The notes beneath the pieces were generated by a model, which saw only the letters and a program-made list of their open reading frames with translations, was not told the DNA's origin and searched no databases. A stretch of 64,000 bases of DNA from contig CAVOMB010000061.1 in assembly GCA_963696935.1 (NCBI GenBank), positions 8,089 to 72,088 on the forward strand. Reading direction: 5' to 3'. The stretch is from an uncultured Thermoleophilia bacterium. GTDB lineage: Bacteria; Actinomycetota; Thermoleophilia; UBA2241. Positions 6,523-39,194 of the stretch are shown here, one piece after another. Position numbers and translations under genes: made by a program. Every line of letters begins with the position of its first letter. Within the stretch, counting starts at the first letter, position 1.

Positions 6523-6625
6523 GCATGCCTCCTCGACGCTGACCGCCTCAGCCTACCGCCCGCAGTGCCCGGCACCAAGGAGCGGTAGGCTGCGACATCC
6601 TGCCACCTGTGGCAGTATCGCCGCC

Positions 6626-21158: not shown

Positions 21159-21172
21159 GAGCGCGGCCGCCC

Positions 21173-21841
21173 TCAGGAGACCCAGGACACGAGCTCGTCC
21201 AGGGCGGCGCGCGAACGCGCGAAGGTATTGGCCGCCGCCTCGAGATCCGGATGCCCGAGTGTGACCGCGACGACCATGCGCTTCTCCTCGGATCCCGGCA
21301 GCAGCGAGCGCAGGATGCCCGGATACCGCACGAGGGTCGTGGTGATGCACGTGCCGAGTCCCTTGTCGTAGGCGGCGAGGCACACGCTCTGCACGAACGA
21401 CGCGGTGTCGTAGCTGGCGGACGCATCGACAAGACAGTTCTCGAAACCGAAGACGAGCAGAACGGGTGCGCCGAAGCAGTCGGCCATGCGCGCCATCGAG
21501 GCGGCCGGGCCTGAGGCTTCACCGGCCGCCTCGAGGGTCGCCGTCCGCGACTTCATGAGGGCGACCGCTCGGGCCGAGCACGCACCGGGCCAGTCGGGAG
21601 TCGGCGTGCCCGGCAGGTCGTGCGCGTCCGCCTCTTCGCGCTCGACGGCGGCCTTGAAAGCGGTCTTGAAGCGCTCGAGGGCCTGTCCCGTGACGGCCCA
21701 GACGTTCCACGCCTGCGTGTTGCGCGACGACGGCGCCCAGCGCGCCTCGTCGAGGATCTCGCGGATGAGGTCCTGCGGGACCGGCTCGGTGGTATAGGCG
21801 CGGATACTGCGGCGCCCGCGGATGACGTCCTCGAACTCCAT
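21173..21841 (-). CDS. Nitroreductase-family flavoprotein
   Basis: MEFEDVIRGRRSIRAYTTEPVPQDLIREILDEARWAPSSRNTQAWNVWAV. ATG at 21841 is preceded by AAGGAG. Confidence 0.85.
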   Translation of the reverse strand: MEFEDVIRGRRSIRAYTTEPVPQDLIREILDEARWAPSSRNTQAWNVWAVTGQALERFKTAFKAAVEREEADAHDLPGTPTPDWPGACSARAVALMKSRTATLEAAGEASGPAASMARMADCFGAPVLLVFGFENCLVDASASYDTASFVQSVCLAAYDKGLGTCITTTLVRYPGILRSLLPGSEEKRMVVAVTLGHPDLEAAANTFARSRAALDELVSWVS

Positions 21842-21919
21842 CGTGAGTCGCTCCTTGGTCAGTGATGAGTCTGTGGTGAGCCTACATCGTGCGCGGCCAG
21901 GGTACGACACGCAGGCGAC

Positions 21920-22564
21920 TCATCGCAGCAGCGCTCGCACGACGGACAAGCCACGCGCGGCGTCGTCGCACCAGGCGTCCGCGCCGACCTGGTCGCTCGC
22001 CGTTTGATCCACGGGAGCGCCGCCGATGACGATCGGCAGGCGGCGCTCCCAGCTCGCCGTGCGCTCCCGCACGAAGGCGATGGTCTGCTTCATGCTGTCG
22101 TAGCCCGTGGTCAGCAGGGAGGAGAGGCCCAGCACGTCGGGGCGTTCGCGCTCGACGGCGTCCGCGATCTGCTCCGGGGGCACGTTGACGCCGAGGTCCA
22201 CCATGTCGTAGCCCTCGGCGTCGAAGAGGGCGATGACGATGTTCTTGCCGATGTCGTGGATGTCGCCGCGCACGGTGGCGATGACCATGCTGTGCTCCCG
22301 AGCGGCGTGCGCGGAGATCTCCCTGCGCGGGACGAGGATTCCCGCCGCCTCGCGGAAGATCTCGCCCGCCATGATGAGAGCGGAGATGAAATAGGTGCCT
22401 TCCTCGTACATCTTGCCGACGCGCTCCATGCCCATGCGGCACTCCGCAAGCAGGGTCGCGGGGTCCTCGCCCGCCTCAAGGCGGCGGCGAATGGCGGCGA
22501 TCGCCCCGCGCTCGTCCATCCGCACGATGAGGTCGTCGAGGGTGGTCTCAGGTGTGGCCGTCAC
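21920..22564 (-). CDS. Cobalamin-binding corrinoid protein, type B (copy B1), co-transcribed with a GntR regulator
   Basis: B12-binding_2 cap helix region followed by a Rossmann-like B12-binding domain with DxHxxG (VRGDIHDIGKN) and SSLLTT. GTG start lies 4 nt after the GntR1 stop, with GAGGAG upstream. Confidence 0.85.
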   Translation of the reverse strand: MTATPETTLDDLIVRMDERGAIAAIRRRLEAGEDPATLLAECRMGMERVGKMYEEGTYFISALIMAGEIFREAAGILVPRREISAHAAREHSMVIATVRGDIHDIGKNIVIALFDAEGYDMVDLGVNVPPEQIADAVERERPDVLGLSSLLTTGYDSMKQTIAFVRERTASWERRLPIVIGGAPVDQTASDQVGADAWCDDAARGLSVVRALLR

Positions 22565-22568
22565 GCGA

Positions 22569-23327
22569 TCATCTCCTCGCCTCGCCGGAACCGACGATGC
22601 CGACCGTTGTCGAGAGGCTGAGGCGGTCGGCGCGCCCGACGAAGCGGCCCCAGCTCTCGGGACGGTCCTCGAAATCGTAGAAGAGGTGTTCGAGGATCCA
22701 CGCCGAGGTGCCCGGCCGCTCGTTCAAATAGGCGGCCTCTGCCTTCGTGAAGGCCGACGCATGCAGGGTCAGGCGGCCATACTTGATGTCCGACCCCGCC
22801 GCGCCGGAGAACAGATCCTGCAGCGCGGTCACGCCGAGCTCGGCCTCGACCAGCGGCCGAGCGGGATCGAAGACCAGGTACTCGCTGTGGTAGAAGAGCG
22901 ACTCTTCCCCGCGCCTGAGCAGCCGCTTGATGGAGATGACGCGGTCGTCCTCCCCGACTTCGAGCTTCTCGCGCACCCGCGCCGAAGGCGAGACGATGCG
23001 CGCCTCGATGATGTGCGCCTCGATGTCGGGGTCGGCAAGGTACTGCTTCAGCTCGCGGAGGTCGAAGAGCGCGGTGCCGAGCTGCGGTACCTTGACGAAC
23101 GTCCCGCGACCGTGCTCCGTCACGGCGACGTCCTCGCGCACGAGCTCGGCGATCGCCCTGCGCACGGTCATCGGACTGACGCCGTAGGCGGCGCAGAGCT
23201 CGGCCTCGGACGGCAGGCGGTCCCCGGGCCGATACCCCCCCCGTGCGATGCTCTCGCGGATGCCGCGAGCGAGCTGAGCGTAGGGCGGCTCGAACGAGTC
23301 TCTGTCGATGGGAGCGCTCCGGTTCAC
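22569..23327 (-). CDS. GntR-family transcriptional regulator, HutC subfamily (wHTH + UTRA), copy 1
   Basis: PPYAQLARGIRESIARGGYRPGDRLPSEAELCAAYGVSPMTVRRAIAELV plus a UTRA-like C-terminal domain. Confidence 0.9.
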   Translation of the reverse strand: MNRSAPIDRDSFEPPYAQLARGIRESIARGGYRPGDRLPSEAELCAAYGVSPMTVRRAIAELVREDVAVTEHGRGTFVKVPQLGTALFDLRELKQYLADPDIEAHIIEARIVSPSARVREKLEVGEDDRVISIKRLLRRGEESLFYHSEYLVFDPARPLVEAELGVTALQDLFSGAAGSDIKYGRLTLHASAFTKAEAAYLNERPGTSAWILEHLFYDFEDRPESWGRFVGRADRLSLSTTVGIVGSGEARR

Positions 23328-23356
23328 GTCGCCAATCTAGCACTTCCCTACTTCCC

Positions 23357-23385
23357 TAGACCACTGGGGAATCGTGCGCTATACT
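23357..23385 (+). promoter_or_regulatory. Candidate promoter for the corrinoid-A1/MT1 operon, overlapping a CTAG-containing operator-like site
   Basis: TAGACC (23357-23362), 17-nt spacer, TATACT (23380-23385). The -35 lies inside cCTAGACCACTg, which resembles a HutC/DasR-type half-site. Confidence 0.3.
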
Positions 23386-23462: not shown

Positions 23463-24098
23463 ATGTCACGAGAGCTGACCGACGCCATCGTCGGCGTGCG
23501 TGAGGAGGAGGCCCTCGGCCTCGTCAGGAGCATGCTCGACGCCGGCACAGATCCGAAGGCCGTGCTGGACGAGGCCAAGGACGCGATGACCGAGCTCGGG
23601 CGCCGCTTCGAGTGCGAGGAGGCCTTCATCCCCGAGCTCATCATGGGCGGTGAGATCATGAAGAACATCGCCGACGAGCTGAAGCCGCATCTCAAGGGCG
23701 AGAGCGACGACGCCAGGCGTGGCACGGTCGTCATCGGCACCGTGCAGGGCGACATCCACGACATCGGTAAGGACATCGTCGTGATGATGCTCGACGTCAA
23801 CGGATACGAAGTGCACGATCTCGGCGTGGACGTGCCGGCGGACAGGTTCATCACCGAGATCCGCGAGAGCGGCGCCCAGGTCGTCGGCCTCAGCGGTCTG
23901 CTGACGTTGGCCTTCGACTCGATGAAAGCGACCGTCGACGCGATCAGCGCCGCCGGCCTTCGCACTCAGGTCAAGATCATGGTCGGAGGCGCCCCGGCGG
24001 ATGCCCAGGTGCAGGACTACACCGGCGCCGACGGCTGGGGCAACGACGTCGGCCAGGCGCTCAAGCTCTGCGCCGAGTGGACAGGAGGGGAGGCCTGA
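23463..24098 (+). CDS. Cobalamin-binding corrinoid protein, type A (copy A1)
   Basis: EAFIPELIMGGEIM, TVQGDIHDIGKD (DxHxxG), and GLSGLLT match the family. GGGAGG lies upstream. The stop overlaps the MT1 start (TGATG). Confidence 0.9.
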   Translation: MSRELTDAIVGVREEEALGLVRSMLDAGTDPKAVLDEAKDAMTELGRRFECEEAFIPELIMGGEIMKNIADELKPHLKGESDDARRGTVVIGTVQGDIHDIGKDIVVMMLDVNGYEVHDLGVDVPADRFITEIRESGAQVVGLSGLLTLAFDSMKATVDAISAAGLRTQVKIMVGGAPADAQVQDYTGADGWGNDVGQALKLCAEWTGGEA

Positions 24099-25354
24099 TG
24101 AGCCCGACAGGCGAGGAGCTCTACAAGCAGCGCGAGCAGCGTTTCAACGACATCGTCGCGCTCCAGAAGCCGGACCACGTGCCCGTCATCGGTCACAACA
24201 TCCACTACTTCGCCGACCTCTGGAAGGGTCACTCCCGCAAGGAAGCGGGCTACAACCACACCCAGCACTACGCCGCCATCAAGGATGCGACCATCGAGTT
24301 CGGCTGGGAGTTCGTGCCCGCCAACGCGCTGTTCGCAGCCGACGGCTACGAAGCCCTGGGCATCAAGCAGCTGCGCTGGCCCGGCGGCGACCTGCCCGAC
24401 GACGTCGGCTTCCAGTTCGTCGAGGGCGAGTACATGCTCGCCGACGAGTACGATGAGTTCCTGGCCGACCCGAACGGCTTCACGGTCCGGAAGATCTTCC
24501 CGCGCATCGCCGACAACCTGGCGGGGTTCGAGCAGGTGCCGATCCCGCCGCTCTACTTCATGGCCAACACCTACTACCTGCTCAACGTCGGCGGACCGCT
24601 GCTCGGCGCGCCGCCGCTGCGCAAGGCTCTGGAGAGCCTGCTGGCCATGTCCGACGCGGTCGGCAGCTACTTCGCCGCGGACGCCGTCAACGCCCAGGAG
24701 ATGACCGCGCTGGGCTGCCCGCGCACTTGGGGAGCACCCATAATCCCCGCCTTCGACGTGGTCTCGGACATGCTGCGCTCTCTCCGCGGCAGCACGCTGG
24801 ACATGTATCGCCATCCCGACCAGCTGCTCGCCGCCATCGACCTCATACAGCAGGCTCAGATCGGCCTCGCGCTAATGGTCATGCAGGCGACCGGCAACCC
24901 GCGCGTCTTCATCCCGATGCACCGCGGCGCGGGGGGGTTCATGAGCGACGAGCAGTTCGAGAAGTTCTACTGGCCGTCGTTCAAGGGTCTTGTCATGGCG
25001 GTCATCGAGGCCGGCGGCGTGCCCTGCCCTCTCTTCGAGGGCGACTACACGCCGCGCCTCAAGTACCTCGCCGAGCTGCCGGCGGGCAAGGTCGGCGGCC
25101 ACTTCGACAAGGTCGACCGCAGGAAGTTCAAGGAGATCCTTGGCGACAAGATGTGCTTCTGGGGCAACGTGCCGGTCTCGCTCCTGTGCACCGGCACGCC
25201 GCAGCAGGTCAAGGACGACGTCAAGGAACTCATCGACCTCTTCGGCGACACCGGCGCGCTGATCCTCGACTCCGGCCTCGGCATCCCCGACGAGGCGCGG
25301 CCGGAGAACCTGCACGCGATGCGCGAGGCGGCTGAGGAGTACGGCGTTCTGTGA
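24098..25354 (+). CDS. URO-D-superfamily corrinoid-dependent methyltransferase (MtaA/O-demethylase MT-like), copy MT1
   Basis: 418 aa with URO-D-like C-terminal barrel motifs (FIPMHRGAGGFMSDEQFEKFYWPSF..., CFWGNVP, LILDSGLGIPDEARPENL). Translationally coupled to corrinoid protein A1. Confidence 0.8.
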   Translation: MSPTGEELYKQREQRFNDIVALQKPDHVPVIGHNIHYFADLWKGHSRKEAGYNHTQHYAAIKDATIEFGWEFVPANALFAADGYEALGIKQLRWPGGDLPDDVGFQFVEGEYMLADEYDEFLADPNGFTVRKIFPRIADNLAGFEQVPIPPLYFMANTYYLLNVGGPLLGAPPLRKALESLLAMSDAVGSYFAADAVNAQEMTALGCPRTWGAPIIPAFDVVSDMLRSLRGSTLDMYRHPDQLLAAIDLIQQAQIGLALMVMQATGNPRVFIPMHRGAGGFMSDEQFEKFYWPSFKGLVMAVIEAGGVPCPLFEGDYTPRLKYLAELPAGKVGGHFDKVDRRKFKEILGDKMCFWGNVPVSLLCTGTPQQVKDDVKELIDLFGDTGALILDSGLGIPDEARPENLHAMREAAEEYGVL

Positions 25355-25394
25355 TGCTTGCGCGCTTTCCGGGAGTGTGTAGGGTGGCCGCATC

Positions 25395-26159
25395 GTGACG
25401 GACGCTCCACGCAACGATTCGCGGCGCTCTGAGGAGCGGCCGGGCGGGCTCAAGCTCATCGCCTGCCCGGCCGTCATCGGCGAACTGGCCGACGGCGCTA
25501 CGGAGGGCGTCGACTGCCACGAGCTCGAGGCGCAGCTCCACGTGAGCCCGGAGCGGCTCAAGGAGGCGCTGCGCGTCGCCGTGGCCGAGGCCGACACGCC
25601 GGGCGCGACGATCGTGCTCGGTTACGGCCTCTGCTCCAATTCCGTGCTCGGCCTCAGGACCGAGCACGCCACGCTCGTCGTGCCCAGGGTCGACGACTGC
25701 ATCGCCATGCTGCTCGGCTCCAATGAGGCCTTTGCGGCGGAATCCGAGAAGGAGCGCGGCAGCTACTACGTCGCCAAGGCGTATCTGGAGGAGTGCGACA
25801 CGATCATGAGCGAGCACGAGAAGCTCGTGGAGAAGCGCGGCCGGGAACGCGCCGAGCAGATGATGCGCCTGCTGCTCGCCCACTACACGCGCATCGTGCT
25901 CGTCGACACCGGCCGCTACGACATGGAGCCGCATCGAGCACGTGTCGCCGACTTCGCCGAGACCTTCGACCTCGCCGTCGAGGAGGTGCCGGGCACGACG
26001 CGTATCCTGGACGCGCTCGTGGAGGGCGAATGGGGCGAGGACTTCGTCGTCGCTCCTCCCGGACACGAGCTCACCCTCCGGGACTTCCGGCCCGAACTCT
26101 TCGCCGGCGGCGCCTCCTCCCCGCCCCCAGCCGCATCGCACGGTACCCGGCAGGCGTGA
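25395..26159 (+). CDS. DUF1638 domain protein
   Basis: LKLIACPAVIGEL..., IVLGYGLCSNSV, VPRVDDCIAMLLGS, and GSYYVAKAYLEE match the DUF1638 pattern, which recurs next to corrinoid methyltransferase genes. GTG start. Confidence 0.7.
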   Translation: MTDAPRNDSRRSEERPGGLKLIACPAVIGELADGATEGVDCHELEAQLHVSPERLKEALRVAVAEADTPGATIVLGYGLCSNSVLGLRTEHATLVVPRVDDCIAMLLGSNEAFAAESEKERGSYYVAKAYLEECDTIMSEHEKLVEKRGRERAEQMMRLLLAHYTRIVLVDTGRYDMEPHRARVADFAETFDLAVEEVPGTTRILDALVEGEWGEDFVVAPPGHELTLRDFRPELFAGGASSPPPAASHGTRQA

Positions 26160-26733
26160 ACGTCCTCTGCATCGCCGGCTTCCTCGGTAAGACGACTCAT
26201 CGGGGTCGCGCGCGCCATGACCCAGCGCGGCCTGCAGCTCGCTGTGATCGAGAACGAGATCGGCGAGGTCGGCGTCGACGACGGCTACGTCCGCGAGCAG
26301 GGCCTGCCCGTCCAGGAGTTCTTCGGCACGATGCATCTGCTGCACCCTGCAAGCCGGACTGGTGGAGGCTCTCCGCGCCGTCGAGAACCGGTACGGACCG
26401 GACTGGGTGATCATCGAGTCCACCGGGCTGGCCGCGCCGGGCGATCTGCTCGGCCTCGTGGTCGACAACTCTCCGGACCTCGACACGATACGTGTACTGA
26501 CGCTCGTCGACGCCGTGCGCTGGCCGATGCTCCTCGAGGTGGTCGAACCGTTGGTCACGGCCCAACTCGAGGTCGCCGACATCGTCGCCGTCAACAAGGT
26601 GGACGAAGTCGACGAGGAAGCACTGGCCGCGGTCATCGAGAGCGTCGGCCGGATCGCCGGCGAGGCGACCATCCTGGCGGTGTCGGCGACCACCGGCGCC
26701 GGCATGAAGCGCTGGCTGGGCGCCGTCGTCTGA
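26158..26733 (+). pseudogene. G3E-family (COG0523/CobW-like) GTPase, disrupted
   Basis: Three frames are needed. Frame A gives VNVLCIAGFLGKTT, a P-loop lacking two residues of GxxGxGKT. Frame B gives LIGVARAMTQRGLQLAVIENEIGEVGVDDGY. Frame C gives CICCTLQAGLVEALRAVENRYGPDWVIIESTGLA...AVNKVD. The shifts are near 26196-26200 and 26325-26331. Confidence 0.6.
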
Positions 26734-27221: not shown

Positions 27222-28571
27222 TCAGATCTCCGCGCCGTACTTGCGTCCGGCGTCGATGAACGCCTTGTACGCGGCCGGGTCGGCCTCGTCCAGGACGATG
27301 CCGCTGCTGAGAATGAAGCCCCCGTCCTTGGCGGTCTTGCCGAGCAGGTCCTTGACGTAGGCGTCCATCTGCTCCGGAGCGCCCATCGTGAACAGCGCGG
27401 CGGGCACGTTGCCGCCGATACACTGGCGCCGGCCGACGGTGGCCTTGGCGCGCTCCATGTCGGTGGCGTCGAACATCCAGACCATGCGGCCGGCGGGGAT
27501 GTCCTCGTCGGCGATGACCTCGAGGCGCTCGTTGTAGGCGCCCTCGGCGAAGACCCACGGCACGAGGCCCTCTTCGATCAGGCCGAGCAGCACAGCCTTG
27601 AAGCTCGGCCAGTAGAGCTCCTTGTAGTCGGCATCGGACATGAAGCCGTCGGCGCCCTTGTGGATCGGGATGAAGACGATCGGGTTCCCCGTCATGTTGC
27701 TCGAGCGGACCGCGAACTCGACGGCTTGCGGCGCGAGCCGGTCCATGGCGGCCTTGAGCTTGTCCGGCTGGCGGAACTTGTCCAGCATGAGGCCGCGGGT
27801 GCCGCGCATGGTGTCGCCGAGGATGTCGTAGGGAGCCTTGGTGGCGCCGCCCGCCGTCTGCGGGATGCCCAGGGTGGCCATGACCCTGCCGTCGGCCGCC
27901 ATGGCCGCCTGCATCCACTCCATGGCGGCGTCGCCGGCCTCGGCCAGCTTCTTGAGCATCTCCTTGACCGGCGGAGCCGAGAAGCCGGCGAAGAGCGGCG
28001 GCGTGAAGGGCATCTCCACGAGATCCGTCCACGGCGCGAGCATCGAGAACGGCTCCATCGCGCCGAACACGCGCGGCAGGTAGGTGCGCTGCCAGTATGT
28101 GCCCGGATCCTGGATGAGAGCGGGGTACTCGTCGCTCTTCATCCACTCCTGCTCGATGTACTGGTAGGAGGTGTCGTCCGGCGTGCCGTGCCCGGGCCAC
28201 TTGTAGAGGTGGTAGTCGAGGATGTCGAAGACCTTGCCCGGCACGATGCTCAGGGTCGAGGCGAGCCCGTCGGGCATCGTCTCCTCGTGGAACTTGAACC
28301 AGTCCTCCTTGAAGATCTCGTAGTCGTAGTACGCCTGCTTGCCGGTGTGGCCGTAGAAACGGAACGGCAGGAGGCCGATCGCCGGCGCGATCGGCACGGT
28401 CGCGGGCTTCTTGAGATCGAGCACGTCGCGGTACAGCTGTACGCGGTCACGGTAGGTCTGCGCTACCTCGGGCGAGGCGAACTCGAGCGGCACGTTCTGC
28501 CAAGCGTCGAGCCGGAACGCCAGCCGCTCTTCGGACGTCAGCTCTTTCCAGTTATCAGGCAGCATCGTCAT
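27222..28571 (-). CDS. URO-D-superfamily corrinoid-dependent methyltransferase, copy MT2
   Basis: 449 aa, a paralogue of MT1 (FIPIHKGADGFMSDADYKELYWPSFKAVLLGLIEEG, CIGGNVP, ILSSGIVLDEADPAAY). Its start overlaps the corrinoid A2 stop (ATGA). Confidence 0.8.
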   Translation of the reverse strand: MTMLPDNWKELTSEERLAFRLDAWQNVPLEFASPEVAQTYRDRVQLYRDVLDLKKPATVPIAPAIGLLPFRFYGHTGKQAYYDYEIFKEDWFKFHEETMPDGLASTLSIVPGKVFDILDYHLYKWPGHGTPDDTSYQYIEQEWMKSDEYPALIQDPGTYWQRTYLPRVFGAMEPFSMLAPWTDLVEMPFTPPLFAGFSAPPVKEMLKKLAEAGDAAMEWMQAAMAADGRVMATLGIPQTAGGATKAPYDILGDTMRGTRGLMLDKFRQPDKLKAAMDRLAPQAVEFAVRSSNMTGNPIVFIPIHKGADGFMSDADYKELYWPSFKAVLLGLIEEGLVPWVFAEGAYNERLEVIADEDIPAGRMVWMFDATDMERAKATVGRRQCIGGNVPAALFTMGAPEQMDAYVKDLLGKTAKDGGFILSSGIVLDEADPAAYKAFIDAGRKYGAEI

Positions 28572-29200
28572 GCACCCCCCACCCAGGTCTTGGCGAGCTC
28601 GACCGCAGCCACGGCGTCCTTGCCCCAGTCGTCGGCGCCGGCGAACTCCACGACGTCACCGGTCACGGGCGCCCCACCGAGCATGATCTTCACGTCGTCG
28701 CGCAGGCCGGCCTCCTCGATGGCGGCCACGGTGGCCTTCATCGACTCGAAGGCGACGGTGAGCAGGCCGCTGAGGCCGAGGATCTGTGCCTTGCTGTCAC
28801 GGACCGCGTCGACGACCTTCGCGACCGGCACGTCGACCCCCAGATCCACGACGTCGAAGCCGCCGATGTCGAGCATCGTCACCACGATGTCCTTGCCGAT
28901 GTCGTGGATGTCGCCCTGCACGGTGCACATCACGACGGTGCCGAGCTTCTCGCCGCCGGAGTCGGCCTTGAGGTAGGGCTTCAGCTTGGCCGTGATGCCG
29001 GTCATGATCTCGCCGGCCATGATGAGCTCGGGGATGAACGCCTCGCCGTCGGCGAACCGCTGGCCGATCACTTCCATGGCTTCCCTGCAGGCGGCGACCA
29101 CGCTGAGTGGGTCGGCGCCGCCCTGCAGCAGCTCACCGGCGATCCGCAGCGCGTCGTCTTCGCGCAGCTCGATCACCGCATTCTTCAGTTCGTCCGGCAT
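28568..29200 (-). CDS. Cobalamin-binding corrinoid protein, type A (copy A2)
   Basis: EAFIPELIMAGEIM, TVQGDIHDIGKD, and GLSGLLT match the family. ATG at 29200 is preceded by GGGAGG. The track ORF extension upstream is spurious. Confidence 0.9.
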   Translation of the reverse strand: MPDELKNAVIELREDDALRIAGELLQGGADPLSVVAACREAMEVIGQRFADGEAFIPELIMAGEIMTGITAKLKPYLKADSGGEKLGTVVMCTVQGDIHDIGKDIVVTMLDIGGFDVVDLGVDVPVAKVVDAVRDSKAQILGLSGLLTVAFESMKATVAAIEEAGLRDDVKIMLGGAPVTGDVVEFAGADDWGKDAVAAVELAKTWVGGA

Positions 29201-29260
29201 TGGGCCTCCCAGGTCCGACTGTGCACGGCAAGCGTCCACCGTGACTTTCCGTAAGCGCCA

Positions 29261-29290
29261 TGACATAATATATAGATAAATAGACAAAGT
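29261..29290. promoter_or_regulatory. AT-rich island (about 20% GC) in the divergent A2/GntR2 intergenic region; likely promoter/operator core
   Basis: tgacataatatatagataaatagacaaagt is striking in a roughly 70% GC background. It contains -10-like hexamers on both strands (CATAAT, TATATT) and TAGA(C/T) repeats. Confidence 0.4.
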
Positions 29291-29329
29291 GCAAGTGAAG
29301 CCGCGTTGCGCTGATAGGATGCGCCCAAG

Positions 29330-30136
29330 ATGGATGACCAGACACCAGCCGCAAGACTCGCGCCGCTCGCGCCGCTCGACCGCGATTCCTACGAGCCGGC
29401 GTATATGCAGCTCGTCAACGTACTGAGCCACGCGATCGCGACGGGGCAGTACCGGGCCGGCGACCAGCTTCCCACCGAGGCCGAGCTGTGCGCCGCCTGG
29501 GACGTGAGCCCGATGACCGTGCGCCGCGCGATCGGCGTGCTGCTCGACCGCGGGGCGGTCAGCACCACACGCGGGCGCGGCACCTTCGTCAAGCCGCTGC
29601 AGCTGGCCTCGGCGACCTTCGAGCTCAGCACCTTCCGCGAACTGCTGGGAGATCCGCGCGTCGAGGCCAAAGTGCTGGAGGCGCGCGTCGTGCCGGCGGG
29701 CGCGCGCGCTGCGGCCAATCTGGCCGTCCCTGAAGGGACGCGCATCATCAGCATCCGGCGTCTGTTGGCGCGCGGTGCAGAACCTCTGATGTATCACCGC
29801 GAGTCGCTCGTCTACGATCCGACGACGCCCACCGTCGAGTCCGAGCTCGGCGTCACAGCCCTACGCGACCTCTTCGAGGGCAGCCTCGGAGCCGGCCCCA
29901 AGCAAGGGGAGCTCATCATCCACGCCTCAGTCCTGACCGAGGACGAGGCACGCCACGTGGATCGTCCCCCCGGCAGCGCCGCGCTGGTGCTCGAGCACCT
30001 CTTCTACGACTACGACGACGCGCCGATGAGCTGGGGGCGCTTCGTCTGCCGCGGCGACCTGCTGCAGTTCCACGCCCGCATCGGTGTCCAGGCGCCGGCG
30101 CCGGAGACCAAGCCACGCTCGAGGAGGCGCTCATGA
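29330..30136 (+). CDS. GntR-family transcriptional regulator, HutC subfamily, copy 2
   Basis: EPAYMQLVNVLSHAIATGQYRAGDQLPTEAELCAAWDVSPMTVRRAIGVLL plus UTRA. A paralogue of 22569-23327. Confidence 0.9.
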   Translation: MDDQTPAARLAPLAPLDRDSYEPAYMQLVNVLSHAIATGQYRAGDQLPTEAELCAAWDVSPMTVRRAIGVLLDRGAVSTTRGRGTFVKPLQLASATFELSTFRELLGDPRVEAKVLEARVVPAGARAAANLAVPEGTRIISIRRLLARGAEPLMYHRESLVYDPTTPTVESELGVTALRDLFEGSLGAGPKQGELIIHASVLTEDEARHVDRPPGSAALVLEHLFYDYDDAPMSWGRFVCRGDLLQFHARIGVQAPAPETKPRSRRRS

Positions 30137-30804
30137 GGCCCAGACCGGGCCTCGACCCGGCGTCGCTCGTCGGTCGCGTCGCCGCGCTCGACGAGCAGGG
30201 CGCTCTCGAGGCCGTCCGCGCCAGGGTCGCGGGCGGCGACGATGCCATGGCGATCATCGCCGACTGCCAGCGTGGTCTGCAGTTGGTCGGCGAAGACTAC
30301 GCCTCCAGCGTGTACTTCATCAGCGGCCTCATCATGGCCGGCGAGATCTTCCGCGAGGCGATGGAGATCCTGGAGCCGCTGCTGCCGGCTGCCGGCGAGC
30401 GTGCCTCGGTCGAGGCGCCAGGCGGCGTGCTCATCTGCACCGTTCGTGGCGACATCCACGACCTCGGCAAGAACATCGTCATCATGATGCTGCGCTCCCA
30501 CGGCATCGTCGTGCACGACCTCGGCGTCGACGTGTCCCCGGACGAGGTGGTACGCAAGGCCCTCGCATTGCAGCCAGCCGTCCTCGGCCTCTCGGGCCTT
30601 CTCACCGCCGCCGCCGAAGGCATGAAGGCGACGGTCGCGGCGGTGCGCGACGCCGGGGACCAGATCCGCGCCCTGCCGATCATCATCGGCGGCAGTATCG
30701 TGAGCGAGGAGGCGTGCGCCTGGACCGGCGCCGACCTGTGGGCCAACGACGCCTCGCGCGGCGTGCGGCTCATCCGCGAGGCGATCGCCGCCAAGCGCGG
30801 CTGA
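30133..30804 (+). CDS. Cobalamin-binding corrinoid protein, type B (copy B2), translationally coupled to GntR2
   Basis: YFISGLIMAGEIFREA, TVRGDIHDLGKN (DxHxxG), and GLSGLLT match the family. The start overlaps the GntR2 stop (ATGA). Confidence 0.85.
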   Translation: MRPRPGLDPASLVGRVAALDEQGALEAVRARVAGGDDAMAIIADCQRGLQLVGEDYASSVYFISGLIMAGEIFREAMEILEPLLPAAGERASVEAPGGVLICTVRGDIHDLGKNIVIMMLRSHGIVVHDLGVDVSPDEVVRKALALQPAVLGLSGLLTAAAEGMKATVAAVRDAGDQIRALPIIIGGSIVSEEACAWTGADLWANDASRGVRLIREAIAAKRG

Positions 30805-30932: not shown

Positions 30933-32521
30933 GTGTCACATGATTGGCCCGTGGCGAAGGACATACGAGTAACCCCTGAGCTGGTCGAGGTACGCCGCCT
31001 CGCACTGGCCCACAACGTCCTGCCCATCACCCACTCGTTCGTCTCCGACCTCGAGACCCCCGTCTCCGCGTTCCTCAAGCTGGGCGCGCCGCGCCGCGCG
31101 TTCCTGCTGGAGAGCGCCGAGCAGGGGCAGCACATGGGCCGCTTCTCGTTCCTCGGTGTCGGCGCCCGCGCGCTGGTCACCTACCAGGACGGGCGCCTCA
31201 CGGTCCAGGAGAACGGCGACCGCCTGAGCGTCGACCACGACGACCCGTTCACGGCCGTCGCCGACCTCATGCGCAGTTACCGGCCGCCCACGAGCGGCGT
31301 GGCCGCCGACCTGCCGCCGCTCGCCGGCGGCCTCGTCGGCTACTTCGGCTACGACCTCGTGCGCCGGCTCGAGCCGCTGCCTGACGCCCCGCCGGACGAC
31401 CTCGGCCTGCCGGAGATGGCGTTCCTGCTGGCCGACACCGTCCTGGTCTTCGACCACCTCAAGCACACCATCACCATCGTCGCCAACGCGTTCGTGGACG
31501 GGCGCGACGTGGACGGCCCCTACGAGCGCGCCGTGGAGCGCATCGCCGACGTGCGCGCCAAGCTGGCCGCGCCCCTGCCCGCCGGCGCGGCCGGGCGCAT
31601 GGTGGACGCGGTGCAGGTCGCCGGCGGCGCGGGCGCGAGCGGGCGGGCGGCCGCAGGCGGCCCCGCCCCCTCGCGCCCGGTCACCTCATCCATGACGCGC
31701 GAGCAGTACGAGGCCGGCGTGGAGCGCTGCCGCCAGTACATCTACGCCGGCGACGCCTTCCAGATCGTGCTTAGCCAGCGCTTCAGCACGCCGGTGGACG
31801 TGACGCCGTTCTCCATCTACCGCGGCGTCCGCGCCGTGAACCCGAGCCCGTACCTCTACTACATCGCCTTCGACGACTTCGCCCTCTGCGGCTCCAGCCC
31901 CGAACCGCTGGTCACCGTCCAGGGCGAGCGCGTGGAGACACGGCCGATCGCCGGCACCCGCCCGCGCGGCGCGAGCGCGGCCGAGGACCGGCGCCTCATG
32001 GACGACCTGCGCGCCGACGAGAAGGAGCGCGCCGAACACGTCATGCTCGTCGACCTCGGACGCAACGATCTCGGCCGCGTCTGCGTGCCGGGCACCGTCA
32101 AGGTGGACGAGTTCATGGAGATGGAGCTCTACTCGCACGTCATCCACATGGTCTCGTCCGTGAACGGCACGCTGGCCGAGGGCAACGACCCGGCGGCCGC
32201 GCTCAAAGCCGCCTTCCCGGCGGGCACGGTGAGCGGCGCCCCCAAGGTGCGCGCCATGCAGATCGTCGACGAGCTGGAGACGGTGCGCCGCGGCCCCTAC
32301 GCCGGCGCGATCGGCTACCTGAGCTACGGCGGCGACCTGGACACCTGCATCTGCATCCGTACGGTGGTGGTCAAGGACGGCGTGGCGCACGTGCAGGCCG
32401 GCGCCGGCATCGTCGCCGACTCGGTGCCCGCCATGGAGTACGCTGAGACCAGGAACAAGGCGGCCGCCCTGCTGCGCGCCATCGACCTCGCCCACGAGCA
32501 GTTCGGCGACGGAGGTCCCTC

Positions 32522-32525
<4 letters not shown>
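30933..32525 (+). CDS. trpE: Anthranilate synthase component I
   Basis: LETPVSAFLKL, FLLESAEQG, GGLVGYFGYD, IAGTRPRG, and GAIGYLSYGGDLDTCICIRT match the family. An alternative GTG is at 30951. Confidence 0.9.
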
Positions 32526-33185
<660 letters not shown>

Positions 33186-33196
<11 letters not shown>

Positions 33197-34232
33197 CGTC
33201 CTGAGCGCGGCCCTCGGGCAGCTCAGCGCCGGCCGTGACCTCACGGAGGACGACGCCCGCGGCGTGCTGCTGGAGATCATGGGCGGCCGCGCCACGGACG
33301 CTCAGACGGCCGCCTTCCTCAGCGCGCTGCGCGTCAAGGGCGAGACCGCGGCCGAGATCGTCGGCATGGCCAAGGCCATGACTGAGCTCGCCGAGAAGGT
33401 CGAGGTGGACGCCGACGTGATCCTCGACACCTGCGGCACCGGCGGCGACCACGCCGGCACCTTCAACATCTCGACGGCGGCGGCGCTCGTGGCCGCGGGC
33501 GCCGGCGTCACCGTGGCCAAGCACGGCAACCGCTCGGCCACCAGCAAGTGCGGCAGCGCCGACGTGCTCGAGGCCCTCGGGGTCGCCATCGACCTTGCCC
33601 CCGGGCAGGTGAGCCGCTGCATCGCCACGTGCGGGATCGGGTTCATGTTCGCGCCCCGCCACCACCTGGCGATGAAGCACGTCGCGCCCGTGCGCCGCGA
33701 GCTCGGCATGGCCACGACGTTCAACCTCATCGGCCCGCTCACCAACCCGGCCGGCGCCAGGCACCAGCTCATCGGCGTGGCCGACGCGCGCTACGTGGAC
33801 CGCATCGCCCAGGCGGTGCGGCTCATGGGCAACGCGCGCAACCTGATCGTGCACAGTGACGACGGGCTGGACGAGATCACCACGACCTGCGCGACCAGCG
33901 TGGTCGAGGTGTTCGCCGGCCAAGGCTACGACGAGCGGTACGAGGTCACGCCCGAGCAGTTCGGTATGCGGCGGGCACGGCTCGAGGACCTCGCCGGCGG
34001 CGACGCCGCCGAGAACGCGGCTCTGCTGCGCGCCGTCGTGGACGGCGCGCCGGGGCCGCACCTGGACATCGTGCTGCTCAACGCCGGCGCGGCGCTGTAC
34101 ATAGCCGAGGCCGCGGGCAGTATCGACGAGGGCGTGGACGAGGCGCGGCGCGCCGTCGCCCACGGCGCCGCCCGCGCCAAGCTGGACGCCCTCGTCGCCA
34201 CCAGCCGGCGGCTCGCCCGGGAGGACGCGTGA
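33186..34232 (+). CDS. trpD: Anthranilate phosphoribosyltransferase
   Basis: DTCGTGGD, HGNRSATSKCGSADVLEALG, and FMFAPRHH match the family. ATG at 33186 is preceded by GAGGAGA; an alternative ATG is at 33171. Confidence 0.9.
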
Positions 34233-35107
34233 GCGGCGCGCCACACTCACCCGGCGGCCCGCCCCGGCCGGCCCTGCCCTACGAGCAGCCGAACCCGGGC
34301 GGCTTTCTCGCCGAGATGGTCGCCGGGTCGCGTCGGCGCGTCGCCGCGGCGCGCGTCGGCGGCAGGCTGCGGCGGCCGGAGCACCCCGGCGAGCCCGGCC
34401 GCCTGCGCGAGGCGCTGGCGCGCCCGAGTTGGACGCCCGGCGCCCCCAGCCCGCAGCTTGCCGTCATCGCCGAGGTCAAGCGGCGCTCGCCGAGCAAGGG
34501 AGACATCGCGTCGGAGCTCGACGCGGTCACGCAGGGGCGCGCCTACGAGGCCGCCGGAGCGGACGCGATCTCCGTGCTCACCGAGCCGACGCGCTTCGGC
34601 GGCTCGCTCGACGACCTGCGCGCCGTGTGCGCGGCGGTCGAGCTCCCCGTGCTGCGCAAGGACTTCATCGTGGACAAGGGGCAGATCTGGGAGGCGGCCG
34701 AGGCGGGGGCCGCCGCCGTGCTCCTCATCGTGGCCATCCTGGGGGACGACCGCCTGCACGAGCTGCTCATCGAGGCGCTCGACTGCGGCCTCGACCCACT
34801 GGTGGAGGTGCACGACCTCGGCGAGACCCGCCGCGCCACCCGCGCCGGCTGCACGCTCGTCGGCATCAACAACCGCGACCTCGTCACCCTTGAGGTGGAC
34901 ATAGCCACCACCGAGTACCTCGCCCCCGCCCTGGGCCCCTGCATGTTCCCGGTGAGCGAGAGCGGCATCGTCACCTCCGCCGACGCCTGCCGCGTGGCGC
35001 TCTCAGGCGCCCGCGCGCTGCTCGTCGGCGAGACGCTCGTGCGCGCTCCCGTCGAGGAACTCTCGCAGGTCATCTCCGACCTCAAGGACCCGGGGTGGCC
35101 GGCGTGA
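34229..35107 (+). CDS. trpC: Indole-3-glycerol phosphate synthase
   Basis: IAEVKRRSPSKG, ISVLTEPTRFGGS, LRKDFIVD, and VGINNRDL match the family. GTGA overlap with trpD. Confidence 0.9.
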   Translation: MSGAPHSPGGPPRPALPYEQPNPGGFLAEMVAGSRRRVAAARVGGRLRRPEHPGEPGRLREALARPSWTPGAPSPQLAVIAEVKRRSPSKGDIASELDAVTQGRAYEAAGADAISVLTEPTRFGGSLDDLRAVCAAVELPVLRKDFIVDKGQIWEAAEAGAAAVLLIVAILGDDRLHELLIEALDCGLDPLVEVHDLGETRRATRAGCTLVGINNRDLVTLEVDIATTEYLAPALGPCMFPVSESGIVTSADACRVALSGARALLVGETLVRAPVEELSQVISDLKDPGWPA

Positions 35108-35793
35108 CCCTGATCAAGGTCTGCGGCCTCACCCGCGCCGAGGACGCCCGACTTGCGGCCGAGCTCGGCGCGTGGGCGCTCGGCTTCGTGCTGACCGGGA
35201 GCCCCAGGCGAGTCCGCGCAGGCGAGGCGGCGGAGCTCATCGCCGCGGCGACGCGCGCCGACTACGGCGCGTCCGGAGAAAAGCCCGGGCGCTCGCCGCA
35301 CGCCGTCGCCGTGGTCACCACCGAGCCGGCCGGCTGGGTCGCCGACGCGCTCGCGGAGAGCGGCGCCGACGCCGTGCAGCTCTCCGCCGGCGCCGACGGC
35401 CCAGGCGTCGCACAGATCCGGGAGGCGGCCGCGCGGCTGCGGCGGCGGCCGCTCGTCATCGCCGCCGCCGACACGCCGGACGTGGCGCTCGCCGACTTCG
35501 TCCTGCTCGACGCGCGTACCGCCGGCGCCTACGGCGGCACCGGCGAGACCCTCGACTGGGAGGCGCTCGCCGCGGACCCCGCCACGCCGGCCGGAGACGT
35601 CGTCGTCCTCGCCGGCGGCCTGCTCCCGGACAACGTCGGCGCAGCCATCGCCGCGCTGCGCCCCGCCGCCGTCGACCTCTCGAGCGGCGTGGAGAGCGCG
35701 CCGGGCGTCAAAGACCATCAGGGACTGCGTGACTTCTTCGCCGCAGTGGTACAAGCGGACGGAGGGGCGGCCATGAGGAGGATCACAGGATGA
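35095..35793 (+). CDS. trpF: Phosphoribosylanthranilate isomerase
   Basis: [13 protein letters not shown] and GGTGETLDW match the family. An alternative GTG at 35104 overlaps the trpC stop (GTGA). Confidence 0.85.
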
Positions 35794-37049
35794 GCATCGA
35801 GACACGCTTCGGCCCGTACGGAGGCCGGTTCGTCCCCGAGACGCTCATCCCGGCGCTCGACGAGCTGACCGCCGCCTACGAGGAGGCGGCGGCCGACACG
35901 GCCTTCCAGGCCACACTGGCTCACCTCCTCTCCGAGTACGCCGGCCGCCCCACCCCGCTCTACCACGCCGAGCGGCTGAGCGCGCGCTGCGGCGCGACGG
36001 TGCTGCTCAAGCGCGAGGACCTCTGTCACACCGGCGCCCACAAGATCAACAACGTCCTCGGTCAGGCCCTGCTCGCGAAGCGGATGGGCAAGCGCCGGGT
36101 GATCGCGGAGACCGGCGCCGGCCAGCACGGCGTGGCCACCGCGACGGCCTGCGCCCTGCTCGACCTCGAGTGCGCCGTGTACATGGGCGCCGAGGACGTG
36201 CGCAGGCAGGAGCTCAACGTGGTGCGCATGCGCCTGCTCGGCGCGACCGTCGTCCCCGTGGAGAGCGGCTCCCGCACCCTGAAGGATGCGATGAACGAGG
36301 CGCTGCGCGACTGGGTGACCAACGTGCGCGACACCTTCTACTGCATCGGGTCGGTCGCCGGCCCGGCCCCGTACCCGTCCATGGTGCGCGACTTCCAGGC
36401 AGTGATCGGCGACGAGACCATCTCCCAGGTTCGCGAGCGGTACGGGCACCTGCCCGACGAGGTCGTCGCCTGCGTGGGCGGCGGCTCCAACGCGATGGGC
36501 ATCTTCAACGCGTTCCGCGACCTCGCCTCGGTGCGGCTCACGGGCGTGGAGGCGGCCGGCGAGGGACTGGACGGCCGCCACGGCGCGCCGCTGGCCAAGG
36601 GCACGCCGGGCGTGCTGCACGGGTCGTACAGCTACCTGTTGCAGGACCCCTGGGGACAGGTGACCGAGGCGCACTCCATCTCGGCCGGGCTGGACTACCC
36701 GGGCGTGGGGCCGGAGCACTCGTGGCTCAAGGACTCCGGCCGCGCGGCGTACGCAGCGGCGACCGACGTGGAGGCTCTCGCAGCCTTCCGCACGCTCTCG
36801 GAGCTCGAGGGCATCATCCCGGCGCTGGAGAGCGCCCACGCCGTGGCCTACGTGCTGCGCGGGCCGTCGGACGTCGAGCCCACCGCGCCGTCGCCGTCCC
36901 AGACCGGCAGGTTCACGATCCCGGGAGAGGCCGAGTTCGACCCGACGGCCACGCGGTTCGCCCGCGGCGACCTCGTGGTGGTCAACCTCTCCGGCCGGGG
37001 AGACAAAGACGTCTACGAGGCCGGAGCGAAGCTGGGGGTGCTTCCATGA
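35790..37049 (+). CDS. trpB: Tryptophan synthase beta chain
   Basis: [33 protein letters not shown], and NLSGRGDKD match the family. It carries a roughly 25-aa insertion before the C-terminal strand. Confidence 0.95.
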
Positions 37050-37098
37050 GCGGTCTACCTACGGTGGCCCGCTCGCGTACGCCCGAAGAGGAGGCGTC

Positions 37099-38049
37099 AT
37101 GAGCGTGCGCAAGCTGCCGCATCCGCCGGCGGGCCAGGAGCCCAGGCCGCCGGCGTCGGAGGAGCCGGCTGGCGGCCACCTCGCCAACCCGGACGAAGAA
37201 GTCCCGGCGCTGCCGCGCGACCTCGCGCCGCGACTGAAGCGCGCGTTCCGCGCGCCGCGCGCGCGGCGCGCGGCGCTCATCCCCTACCTCACCGGCGGCC
37301 ACCCGACGCTCGAGACCAGCAACGCGCTCATCGAGGCGCTCATCGACGCCGGCGCCGACGTCGTCGAGCTCGGCGTGCCGTTCTCCGACCCCATCGCCGA
37401 CGGCCCGGTGGTGCAGCAGTCGACGCACGCGGCACTCACGGCGGGTGTGACGCCGGACGACGTCCTCGCGCTGGCGGCGGCGCACAGCGCCGCCGTGCCG
37501 TTCGTGCTGCTCACGTACCTGAACTCGGTGCTCGCCTACGGCGCCGAGCGGTTCTTCCAGCGGGCCGCGACCGCGGGCGTGGAGGCGCTGGTGATCCCCG
37601 ACCTGCCGCTGGACGAGGCCGACGGCCGCGATGTCGCCCTGGCGCGCGAGGCCGGCGGGCTGGCACGCCTCGCCGCCGGCGCCGGCGTCTCGCTGGTGCC
37701 GATGGCGACGCCGACGAGCATCGGCGAGCGCCTGGACCTCGTCGCCGCGGCGGCCACCTCGTTCGTCTACTGCGTCGCCGTGACCGGCGTGACCGGGGCG
37801 CGCGCGGAGGTCGGCAGCGAGCTGCCGGAGCTGCTCGCGCGCCTGCGTGAACGCACGGACGCGCCGCTCGCGGTGGGCTTCGGCATCTCGACACCCGAGC
37901 AGGCGGCGAGCGTGGCATCGCTGGCGGACGGCGTGATCATCGGCAGCGCGCTCATCGACGCCGTCTCCCGGGCGGAGTCCCCGGACGCCGCCTGCGCAGC
38001 CGCCGGGCGGCTGATCGGCGACGCGAGCAAGGCAATGGCCGGCGCATGA
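37099..38049 (+). CDS. trpA: Tryptophan synthase alpha chain (with roughly 40-aa N-terminal extension as annotated)
   Basis: ALIPYLTGGHP, VELGVPFSDPIADGPVVQ, and GFGISTPEQA match the family. The true start is uncertain. Confidence 0.9.
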   Translation: MSVRKLPHPPAGQEPRPPASEEPAGGHLANPDEEVPALPRDLAPRLKRAFRAPRARRAALIPYLTGGHPTLETSNALIEALIDAGADVVELGVPFSDPIADGPVVQQSTHAALTAGVTPDDVLALAAAHSAAVPFVLLTYLNSVLAYGAERFFQRAATAGVEALVIPDLPLDEADGRDVALAREAGGLARLAAGAGVSLVPMATPTSIGERLDLVAAAATSFVYCVAVTGVTGARAEVGSELPELLARLRERTDAPLAVGFGISTPEQAASVASLADGVIIGSALIDAVSRAESPDAACAAAGRLIGDASKAMAGA

Positions 38050-39118: not shown

Positions 39119-39194
39119 TGGTGGGCGACGTTGGAATTGAACCAACGACCTCGTGCTTGTCGAGCACGCGCTCTCCCAACTGAGCTAGTCGCCC
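39119..39194 (-). tRNA. tRNA-Val (anticodon GAC), CCA encoded
   Basis: GGGCGAC-TA-GCTC-AGTTGGGA-GAGC-G-CGTGC-TCGACAA-GCACG-AGGTC-GTTGG-TTCAATT-CCAAC-GTCGCCC-A-CCA. All four stems pair perfectly. 76 nt. Confidence 0.95.

Follow-up and report, generated by a model that had tools for sequence, protein, structure and literature searches.

Why should the gene of a corrinoid protein be joined to that of a transcriptional regulator, while the divergent operon carries a corrinoid protein gene of its own? The question is raised by the 64,000-nt stretch of contig CAVOMB010000061.1 analysed here (the window), from an uncultured Thermoleophilia bacterium, in which two head-to-head modules were found, each formed by a GntR-type regulator and a B-type corrinoid protein (the GntR-B pair) facing an A-type corrinoid protein and a methyltransferase (the A-MT pair). 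Corrinoid-dependent methyltransferases demethylate lignin-derived aromatics, chloromethane and methylamines, and are widespread in anoxic carbon cycling; the regulation of these systems is largely unexplored according to a 2026 study (PMC13222342). An initial annotation of the window, made from the sequence alone, proposed that GntR and B work together, possibly as a split counterpart of CarH, with a dedicated second methyl carrier as the alternative. Our analyses give a probability of about 0.5 to GntR and B constituting a conserved two-gene regulatory cassette for a divergent corrinoid-dependent methyltransferase operon of the O-demethylase/CdmB type, in which B may act as a non-catalytic reporter of cofactor state for a HutC repressor, by analogy with AerR and CrtJ. 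The outcome is a compact cassette (repressor, dedicated corrinoid protein and candidate operator) with sequence signatures and a wide distribution. The genes of the pair in the window are the following.

29330-30804, plus strand: GntR2 and B2 group, divergent from MT_b-A2
29330-30136, plus strand: GntR2, HutC-type regulator (winged helix-turn-helix and UTRA), 268 aa; Pfam GntR 3.7e-16, UTRA 1.5e-19
30133-30804, plus strand: B2, B-type corrinoid protein, 223 aa; Pfam B12-binding_2 and B12-binding
22569-23327, minus strand: GntR1, HutC-type regulator, 252 aa; Pfam GntR 1.2e-21, UTRA 6.7e-15
21920-22564, minus strand: B1, B-type corrinoid protein, 214 aa; Pfam and alignment

The GntR-B pair and its conservation

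Genes of the window, whose DNA is ~70% G+C, were called by third-position GC content and Pfam matches. As initially annotated, a HutC-type regulator (GntR and UTRA domains) is followed in both modules by a type-B corrinoid protein. All four small corrinoid proteins of the window (A1, A2, B1 and B2) carry the B12-binding_2 and B12-binding domains in Pfam, which in B2 correspond to a four-helix cap followed by a Rossmann B12-binding domain. GntR1 and GntR2 share 54% identity, B1 and B2 44%, and A and B proteins 38%.

The junctions described for the two pairs were both recovered by reading the sequence. The B2 start codon (ATG, 30133-30135) and the GntR2 stop codon (TGA, 30134-30136) form the reported ATGA overlap at 30133-30136 and are preceded by GAGGAGG at 30121-30127, the coupling signal as a whole spanning 30121-30136 (plus strand); GntR1 and B1 are separated by the 4-nt gap TCGC at 22565-22568, with GAGGAG at 22573-22578. 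The contig has signs of frameshift in a cobW-like gene, and the GntR2/B2 overlap is backed by many orthologous loci.

The conservation of the pair was surveyed in both directions. A B-type profile was searched against one genome per species and the resulting loci were annotated by tblastn; in the reverse survey 80 metagenome loci were chosen by the regulator alone, 65 of them being testable, i.e. continuing for 500 nt or more past the regulator. Sampling was by similarity among the matches listed, so that all frequencies refer to the sampled subfamily (regulator identity of at least ~43%), and start codons in the surveyed loci were picked by a heuristic. In every genome locus with a B-like corrinoid protein, the immediately preceding gene in the same orientation encoded a HutC regulator; such loci occurred in Thermoleophilia and other Actinomycetota, Anaerolineae, Chloroflexia, Syntrophomonadaceae, Syntrophorhabdales, Desulfosarcina and other Desulfobacterota, and Clostridia. 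Isolates are among the carriers of the cassette, e.g. Desulfosarcina variabilis (L027) and Desulfosporosinus sp. HMP52 (L011). Starting from the regulator, a corrinoid protein gene was found directly downstream in 62/65 testable metagenome loci (among the matches listed), the exceptions being one locus with a 1-kb insertion and two related contigs without B (L094 and L095). Altogether the pair was seen in at least five phyla, with genome loci from Actinomycetota, Chloroflexota, Bacillota, Desulfobacterota and Syntrophorhabdales, and in hundreds of metagenomic instances. The distance from the GntR stop to the B start, available for 78 complete modules, was negative in 28 (mostly -4), between 0 and 30 nt in 42, and 82 nt at most; 70 modules thus show an overlap or a gap of no more than 30 nt, and the -4 overlap of GntR2/B2 recurs in ~24 others. 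The co-occurrence survey called for by the initial annotation therefore rejects a lack of conservation outside this genome: the pair is kept across phyla, tightly coupled and duplicated as a unit.

Departures from this arrangement were observed. L094 and L095 keep the GntR and DUF1638 genes and have lost B, of which L094 (6001-8560) bears a short, truncated and out-of-frame remnant together with a convergent membrane-protein gene; the two contigs are possible natural knock-outs of B. A Firmicutes variant (L032, 10928-14280; L037, 12054-15353; L044, 597-1944), found in metagenome-assembled genomes of Peptococcaceae, Thermincola and Roseburia, has the corrinoid protein first and the HutC GntR second, with overlapping genes and, in L032 and L037, RACo after GntR. 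Finally, close relatives of the window (L081, 8001-11694; L088; L091) have a hybrid single module, with MT_b-A2 divergent from a GntR1-like/B1-like pair, which suggests recombination between paralogous GntR-B cassettes; this module adjoins trpE in L081 and L091, and L081 has a 145-aa B2-like fragment between B1 and trpE.

B follows the regulator rather than the methyltransferases

The divergent partners of the two GntR-B pairs in the window are listed below.

27222-29200, minus strand: MT_b and A2 group
28568-29200, minus strand: A2, A-type corrinoid protein, divergent from GntR2; alignment with A1; TIGR02370 165.7 bits
27222-28571, minus strand: MT_b, UroD-superfamily methyltransferase I, 449 aa; Pfam URO-D
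23463-26733, plus strand: A1, MT_a, DUF1638 and cobW-like group, divergent from the GntR1-B1 group
23463-24098, plus strand: A1, A-type corrinoid protein; Pfam, alignment and NCBIfam
24077-25354, plus strand: MT_a, UroD-superfamily methyltransferase I, 425 aa

Among PDB sequences MT_b is closest to CdmB (1.1e-24), which acts as methyltransferase I on chloromethane in Acetobacterium and is related in turn to O-demethylases (PMC13222342); MT_a and MT_b share 35% identity.

Per locus, there are as many corrinoid proteins as methyltransferases and GntR regulators together: one GntR, one methyltransferase and two corrinoid proteins in 31 loci, one, two and three in six, and none, one and one in 18. 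Many A-MT pairs occur with no GntR-B inside 10 kb. The same dependence emerged from a mirror-tree comparison of pairwise-distance matrices over 31 full modules, in which correlations are inflated by linkage: GntR and B gave the highest value (r = 0.84), followed by GntR-A (0.66), A-MT (0.57), GntR-MT (0.36) and B-MT (0.28). Once GntR was controlled for, the partial correlation of B was -0.04 with the methyltransferase and 0.06 with A. Moreover, the pair has been duplicated as a unit, GntR1-like regulators going with B1-like proteins in 11/11 loci and GntR2-like with B2-like in 6/6 (at least 60% identity). B adjoins GntR rather than methyltransferase I (MT-I), and neither genetic coupling to a cognate MT-I nor co-variation with it was found.

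A complete catalytic operon lies in L082, where RACo, a URO-D MT-I, an A-type corrinoid protein, a pterin-binding methyltransferase II (MT-II) and DUF1638 stand on one strand and GntR-B on the other, the MT-II and RACo identities having been confirmed in other loci. Complete catalytic operons already own a corrinoid protein, and B is not needed as their carrier. Several independent lines (gene counts, the mirror tree, carriers within the operons and, as described below, residue loss and stand-alone clusters) thus tie B to the regulator and not to the enzymes. That B works with the regulator is upheld to this extent, its direct regulatory role being a further step that we infer, and the alternative of a dedicated second methyl carrier is weakened by the same evidence.

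Sequence signatures and predicted structure of B

The GntR-linked corrinoid proteins constitute a separate clade in a neighbour-joining tree. Comparison of 71 B with 56 A sequences (numbering of B2) showed that the cobalt-site motifs DxHxxGK, SxL and GG are kept in both groups; among the B sequences D107, H109, G112 and K113 are invariant (71/71), S154 is present in 70/71 and GG is conserved, so that B is likely, by its motifs, to bind a corrinoid. The groups differ elsewhere. The acidic residue of the FxPE/D motif (position 65) is E or D in 100% of A and G or A in 100% of B, the A-type Lys182 is replaced by Pro and Trp217 by Leu or Ile in B, and the GLRD loop at 176-179 is absent from B; at these signature positions 4JGI and 1Y80, two carriers of known structure, follow the A type. 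The motif differences initially annotated are exact for the window proteins, YFIS[AG]LIMAGEIFREA and VRGDIHD[IL]GKN in B against EAFIPELIM[GA]GEIM and TVQGDIHDIGKD in A. Beyond the window the contrast of SG/SA in B with PE/GD in A holds clade-wide, whereas that of R with Q before GDIHD does not.

The B signature also goes with a stand-alone architecture. Among the best 149 cluster representatives 35 were B-like, all stand-alone and of no more than 271 aa, and no fusion of the B-type clade to an enzyme domain was found among these 35 clusters; in fusions to URO-D, Pterin_bind or MtrH the corrinoid domain was always A-like. Long matches in the 50%-cluster library likewise consisted of A-like corrinoid domains fused to URO-D, Pterin_bind, MtrH or DUF1638, and never to GntR. 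A search with a concatenated GntR2 and B2 query returned five long proteins (P0261 and P0281-P0284), which we discarded as frameshift artefacts, with out-of-frame stretches and occurring as metagenome singletons.

Both its sequence and its predicted structure place B2 among the methyltransferase-type corrinoid proteins. Its AlphaFold2 model (pLDDT, the predicted local distance difference test, 86.5) had 4JGI, the O-demethylase carrier of D. hafniense, as top PDB match in Foldseek, followed by MttC, MtmC and MetH. TIGR02370 gave 107.7 bits for B2, 136.4 for B1 and 154-166 for the A proteins, against a cutoff of 215.3; with the A proteins also falling below it, so narrow a model cannot settle membership. 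The specific MtaC, MtbC and MtgC models did not claim B either. Curated NCBIfam families were found for none of GntR1/2, B1/2, MT_b and DUF1638, B1 and B2 had no CarH match in NCBIfam or among PDB sequences, and B had no AerR match among PDB sequences at E<=1e-5.

Regulator, candidate operator and promoters

Both regulators combine an N-terminal GntR winged helix-turn-helix (PF00392) with a C-terminal UTRA effector domain (PF07702, chorismate-lyase fold). The GntR2 model (pLDDT 81.7) resembles most closely the folds of YvoA/NagR, YydK, DasR and PhnF in the PDB, where its sequence matches 2ra5 and DasR. Mean column conservation over 71 non-identical regulators was 0.65 in UTRA against 0.73 in the helix-turn-helix domain, and the MT-I enzymes linked to these regulators range from 22 to 88% identity. 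That UTRA is nearly as conserved as the DNA-binding domain despite such diverse enzymes suggests that these regulators share a ligand and do not each sense a different substrate.

The divergent promoter region contains an operator-like consensus, ACTTatATAGGGAAGT. The divergent intergenic regions have in common a 26-bp element (consensus TACACTTATATAGGGAAGTTGTCAAG) with a core that is a 16-bp imperfect palindrome, ACTTnnnTAGGGAAGT, and fully palindromic variants of it occur (CCCTAGGG and CTGTCTAGACAG); such a palindromic core is the architecture expected of the binding site of a HutC dimer. A position weight matrix (PWM) built from the first batch of loci, with the window excluded, was applied to 53 independent second-batch loci, and its locus-wide best match fell within 260 nt upstream of GntR in 44/53, with scores up to 35 bits. 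Judged by their helix-turn-helix and UTRA domains together with this predicted palindromic operator, GntR1 and GntR2 belong to the HutC subfamily. The corresponding candidate elements of the window are these.

29263-29288, plus strand: operator-like element of module 2, TAATATATAGATAAAT plus AGACAAA; aligned with the cross-phylum motif
23343-23368, minus strand: operator-like element of module 1, core AGTGGTCTAGGGAAGT at 23350-23365
29241-29269, plus strand: promoter-like site for GntR2-B2, GTGACT-17-CATAAT with TG, its -10 abutting the operator; consensus scan only
23357-23385, plus strand: promoter-like site for the A1 operon, TAGACC-17-TATACT, its -35 inside the operator; consensus scan only

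The module 2 element scored 12-15 bits on both strands (shuffle mean 5.8), only the minus-strand value of 15.1 exceeding the best shuffle (13.2). It coincides, as do the promoter elements, with an AT-rich island at 29259-29295 (ATGACATAATATATAGATAAATAGACAAAG) amid 70% GC. The module 1 element, with 11.5 bits, lies above the shuffle mean of 5.8 and below the best shuffle of 13.2, and is therefore not beyond chance by score alone; it is supported by its position between the divergent genes, and its variant TGGTCTAGGGAAGT recurs in the orthologous loci L088, L091 and L115.

DUF1638 as a recurrent neighbour

A third member of the cassette is recurrent, namely the DUF1638 protein.

25395-26159, plus strand: DUF1638 protein; Pfam 6.6e-40

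It was found in L003, L005, L007-L009, L071, L082 and L087-L164, either as the first divergent gene beside GntR (30/55 loci) or directly after B, at times with a 4-nt overlap (L009, L071, L130, L132, L146, L147 and L155). A natural fusion of DUF1638 to a corrinoid protein also exists (P0428, 471 aa), its corrinoid domain scoring slightly A-like. DUF1638 has been genetically linked to corrinoid reactivation (PMC5764234, PMC12478193), and genetics shows it to be needed, together with a corrinoid protein and a RamA-like activase, in the split methionine synthase (PMC5764234). Against PDB sequences DUF1638 gave nothing significant.

Regulatory or biochemical role of B

The data show that the two genes are coupled and conserved as a pair, that an operator motif accompanies them, that B has the cobalt-ligand motifs and that it tracks the regulator and not the enzymes. 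In the reading that we favour, a GntR dimer would bind the 16-bp palindrome-like operator overlapping the divergent promoters and repress the catabolic methyltransferase operon, and probably its own transcript too. B would be a paralogue of the methyl-carrying corrinoid protein without catalytic function, loaded with a corrinoid and made by translational coupling in a fixed ratio with the repressor. The state of its cofactor would be passed on through direct binding of B to the repressor, probably on the UTRA domain, given the unusual conservation of the latter. In this scheme we infer the contact between GntR and B, the sign of the regulation and the state that is sensed. For the latter, methylated versus unmethylated B, which would make induction dependent on catalysis, seems an unlikely candidate, and so does holo versus apo B, i.e. 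a cofactor-availability gate; oxidised versus reduced B appears more improbable still.

Several observations weigh against this regulatory role. Co-inheritance of neighbouring genes alone could give the GntR-B correlation. B retains every motif of a working corrinoid protein and groups by sequence with the methyltransferase carriers instead of with CarH or AerR, and no genuine GntR-B fusion was found among close relatives. The GntR-linked corrinoid proteins of the Firmicutes variant are A-like at the signature positions, so the B signature is not required for linkage to GntR, which is not limited to the B clade. HutC regulators often head a catabolic operon under their own control, and GntR1-B1 is followed by nitroreductase and MFS (major facilitator superfamily) genes; co-transcription with the repressor alone does not therefore imply a regulatory role. 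Finally, the linkage of DUF1638, presumed to be a corrinoid-reactivation factor, is almost as tight, and in some loci its gene overlaps the stop codon of B, which suits a biochemical function better than a regulatory one.

The strongest alternative, tentative but serious, is that B is a working corrinoid protein with no regulatory function. It would serve as a second methyl carrier, or would assist DUF1638, RACo or the nitroreductase-like protein in loading, storing or reductively reactivating the cofactor, and would merely be co-transcribed with the repressor heading the regulon, GntR sensing an ordinary small molecule through UTRA. The preserved DxHxxGK, SxL and GG motifs and the O-demethylase carrier as closest structure are what such a protein should display, and DUF1638, needed with a corrinoid protein and a RamA-like activase in the split methionine synthase (PMC5764234), lies beside the cassette in most loci, at times directly after B. 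The DUF1638-corrinoid protein fusion, the Firmicutes order of corrinoid protein, GntR and RACo, and the continuation of GntR1-B1 into the nitroreductase and MFS genes point the same way. However, the corrinoid domain of P0428 is slightly A-like and not B-like, none of the 35 B-like clusters is fused to an enzyme domain, and residues invariant in A-type carriers have been lost from it. Its copy number goes with GntR and not with MT-I, no residual co-variation with MT-I or A is left once GntR is accounted for, complete systems already have an A-type carrier, and many A-MT systems lack B inside 10 kb. A working carrier would also leave unexplained why 95% of the regulator genes are adjacent to it while DUF1638 and the A-MT pairs move around. 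Should B be catalytic, it would be, together with DUF1638, an unrecognised extra component of these enzyme systems.

Within the regulatory reading, we regard as doubtful a sub-model of catalysis-coupled substrate sensing, in which MT-I, given its substrate, methylates B, and the resulting methyl-Co(III)-B dislodges GntR from its operator. It would account for a conserved GntR/UTRA accompanying very diverse MT-I enzymes (22-88% identity; r = 0.36 between GntR and MT), for the 35%-identical MT-I enzymes of the two cassettes in the window, and for the retention in B of the His-on cobalt site on which Co(I)/CH3-Co(III) cycling relies; a single conserved regulator family could in this way respond to many methyl donors of different chemistry. 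The partial correlation of -0.04 between B and MT, and the loss from B of the A-type invariant surface residues, presumed docking sites for MT-I, MT-II or activase, speak mildly against direct methylation by MT-I. Slightly less probable is a reading in which B is a decoy substrate, methylated in the presence of a methyl donor by MT-I or by MT-II in reverse, and methyl-cob(III)-B frees the HutC repressor from its DNA site; the inducing signal would be catalysis itself and not the binding of a ligand, and one cassette could serve operons for unrelated methoxylated, halogenated and N-methyl substrates.

The weakest explanation, that the adjacency is functionally meaningless, draws on the selection of loci by similarity to the queries, which makes them orthologues with co-inherited neighbours, but chance or hitch-hiking (including recent common ancestry of the sampled loci) as the cause of the pairing is effectively excluded by the persistence of the pair across at least five phyla, in 62/65 loci and with very short intergenic distances, while the A-MT pairs vary in number, DUF1638 in position and strand, and MT-II and RACo in occurrence, and the transporters differ as well, and by the existence of the reversed-order variant.

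Relation to known systems

The concept of a separate B12-binding co-regulator is already known from AerR of Rhodobacter, whose cofactor state modulates the CrtJ repressor; AerR/PpaA proteins are stand-alone B12-binding co-regulators of CrtJ/PpsR (PMC9144470). The cassette resembles this system in its two separate polypeptides and in the stand-alone cap and Rossmann B12-binding fold, AerR (7TE2) and the B2 model superimposing with a template modelling (TM) score of 0.64. It differs in that B carries a methyltransferase-type DxHxxG site and lacks sequence similarity to AerR, that its presumed partner is a HutC/GntR regulator instead of the PAS-HTH (helix-turn-helix) protein PpsR, and that its cassette adjoins corrinoid methyltransferase genes, whereas the targets of AerR are photosystem genes; given the habitats sampled, light sensing by B is unlikely. 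CarH/LitR regulators use a B12-binding module of the same fold for transcription control, and CarH appears at about ranks 34-50 of the B2 fold matches, but CarH is a single polypeptide fused to a MerR helix-turn-helix, whereas B stands alone. CarH senses adenosylcobalamin and has the cap motif Wx9EH; the cap helices of B2 contain no Trp. With a common fold and no detectable sequence similarity, B falls outside the CarH and AerR lineages, and if B regulates, its recruitment is independent of theirs. The analogy to a split CarH thus survives in that stand-alone B12 co-regulators exist, and fails as regards sequence kinship.

B shares its domains, cobalt-ligand motifs and genomic neighbourhood with the carriers of three-component systems (4JGI, MtoC/CdmC, MtaC, MtmC and MttC), where it also has its best matches in sequence and structure, and from which it is set apart by its separate clade, the lack of E/D65, K182, W217 and the GLRD loop, TIGR02370 scores lower than those of A, and its linkage to the regulator instead of MT-I. 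GntR1 and GntR2 have the domain architecture and fold of HutC repressors such as DasR, NagR/YvoA, PhnF and HutC. The 16-bp palindromic candidate operator, of the ACT...AGT type with central TA/CTAG, resembles the dre site of DasR, and the window site AGTGGTCTAGGGAAGT has what we take to be a dre-like half. Unlike these repressors, the cassette GntR is obligately coupled to a corrinoid-protein gene and its UTRA is conserved across systems with different substrates. In the eut and pdu systems of Salmonella, induction of B12-dependent pathways by EutR/PocR needs the cofactor as well as the substrate; these are single AraC-type proteins which bind their ligands themselves, with no separate B12-binding protein. 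A holo/apo gate exerted by B would be logically similar to the cofactor requirement of EutR.

A full-text literature search found no published GntR/corrinoid-protein regulatory pair, in agreement with the initial annotation, which knew of none, and GntR genes near mttB and B12-binding genes in Eubacterium have been the subject of remarks only (PMC4791908, PMC9303578). If B is a co-regulator, transcription control by B12 proteins extends from light and redox responses in photosynthesis (CarH, AerR) to substrate catabolism, and a protein partner joins the effector repertoire of HutC/GntR regulators.

Other genes of the window

The GntR1-B1 pair continues into two further genes on the same strand.

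19686-23327, minus strand: MFS, nitroreductase, B1 and GntR1 group
21173-21910, minus strand: nitroreductase-family gene downstream of B1, start codon uncertain; Pfam
19686-21383, minus strand: MFS transporter downstream of the nitroreductase gene, start codon uncertain; Pfam MFS_1 2.4e-57

The two reading frames overlap as called, so the true MFS start is probably further downstream. Similarity of the nitroreductase-family gene to BluB in NCBIfam was weak and under the cutoff, and its order with the MFS gene after B1 recurs in L115; a second nitroreductase-like gene lies at 6512-7498. On the other side of module 1, a cobW-like GTPase gene (26160-26733) is spread over three reading frames, with a P-loop remnant (GFLGKTT), then AVIENEIGEVG and then a Pfam-matching C-terminal part at 26362-26733, being either a pseudogene or the result of assembly indel errors. 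Neither a pterin-binding methyltransferase II nor a RACo activase was found within the 64-kb window, and an Rfam scan of it detected no cobalamin riboswitch and a single tRNA, at 39122-39194 (minus strand).

No terminator-like site was found between B2 and the complete trpE-G-D-C-F-B-A operon (30933-38049), which begins 128 nt past B2. Further downstream, at 47493-52115, the window encodes a 1540-aa PAS/GAF-GGDEF-EAL protein.

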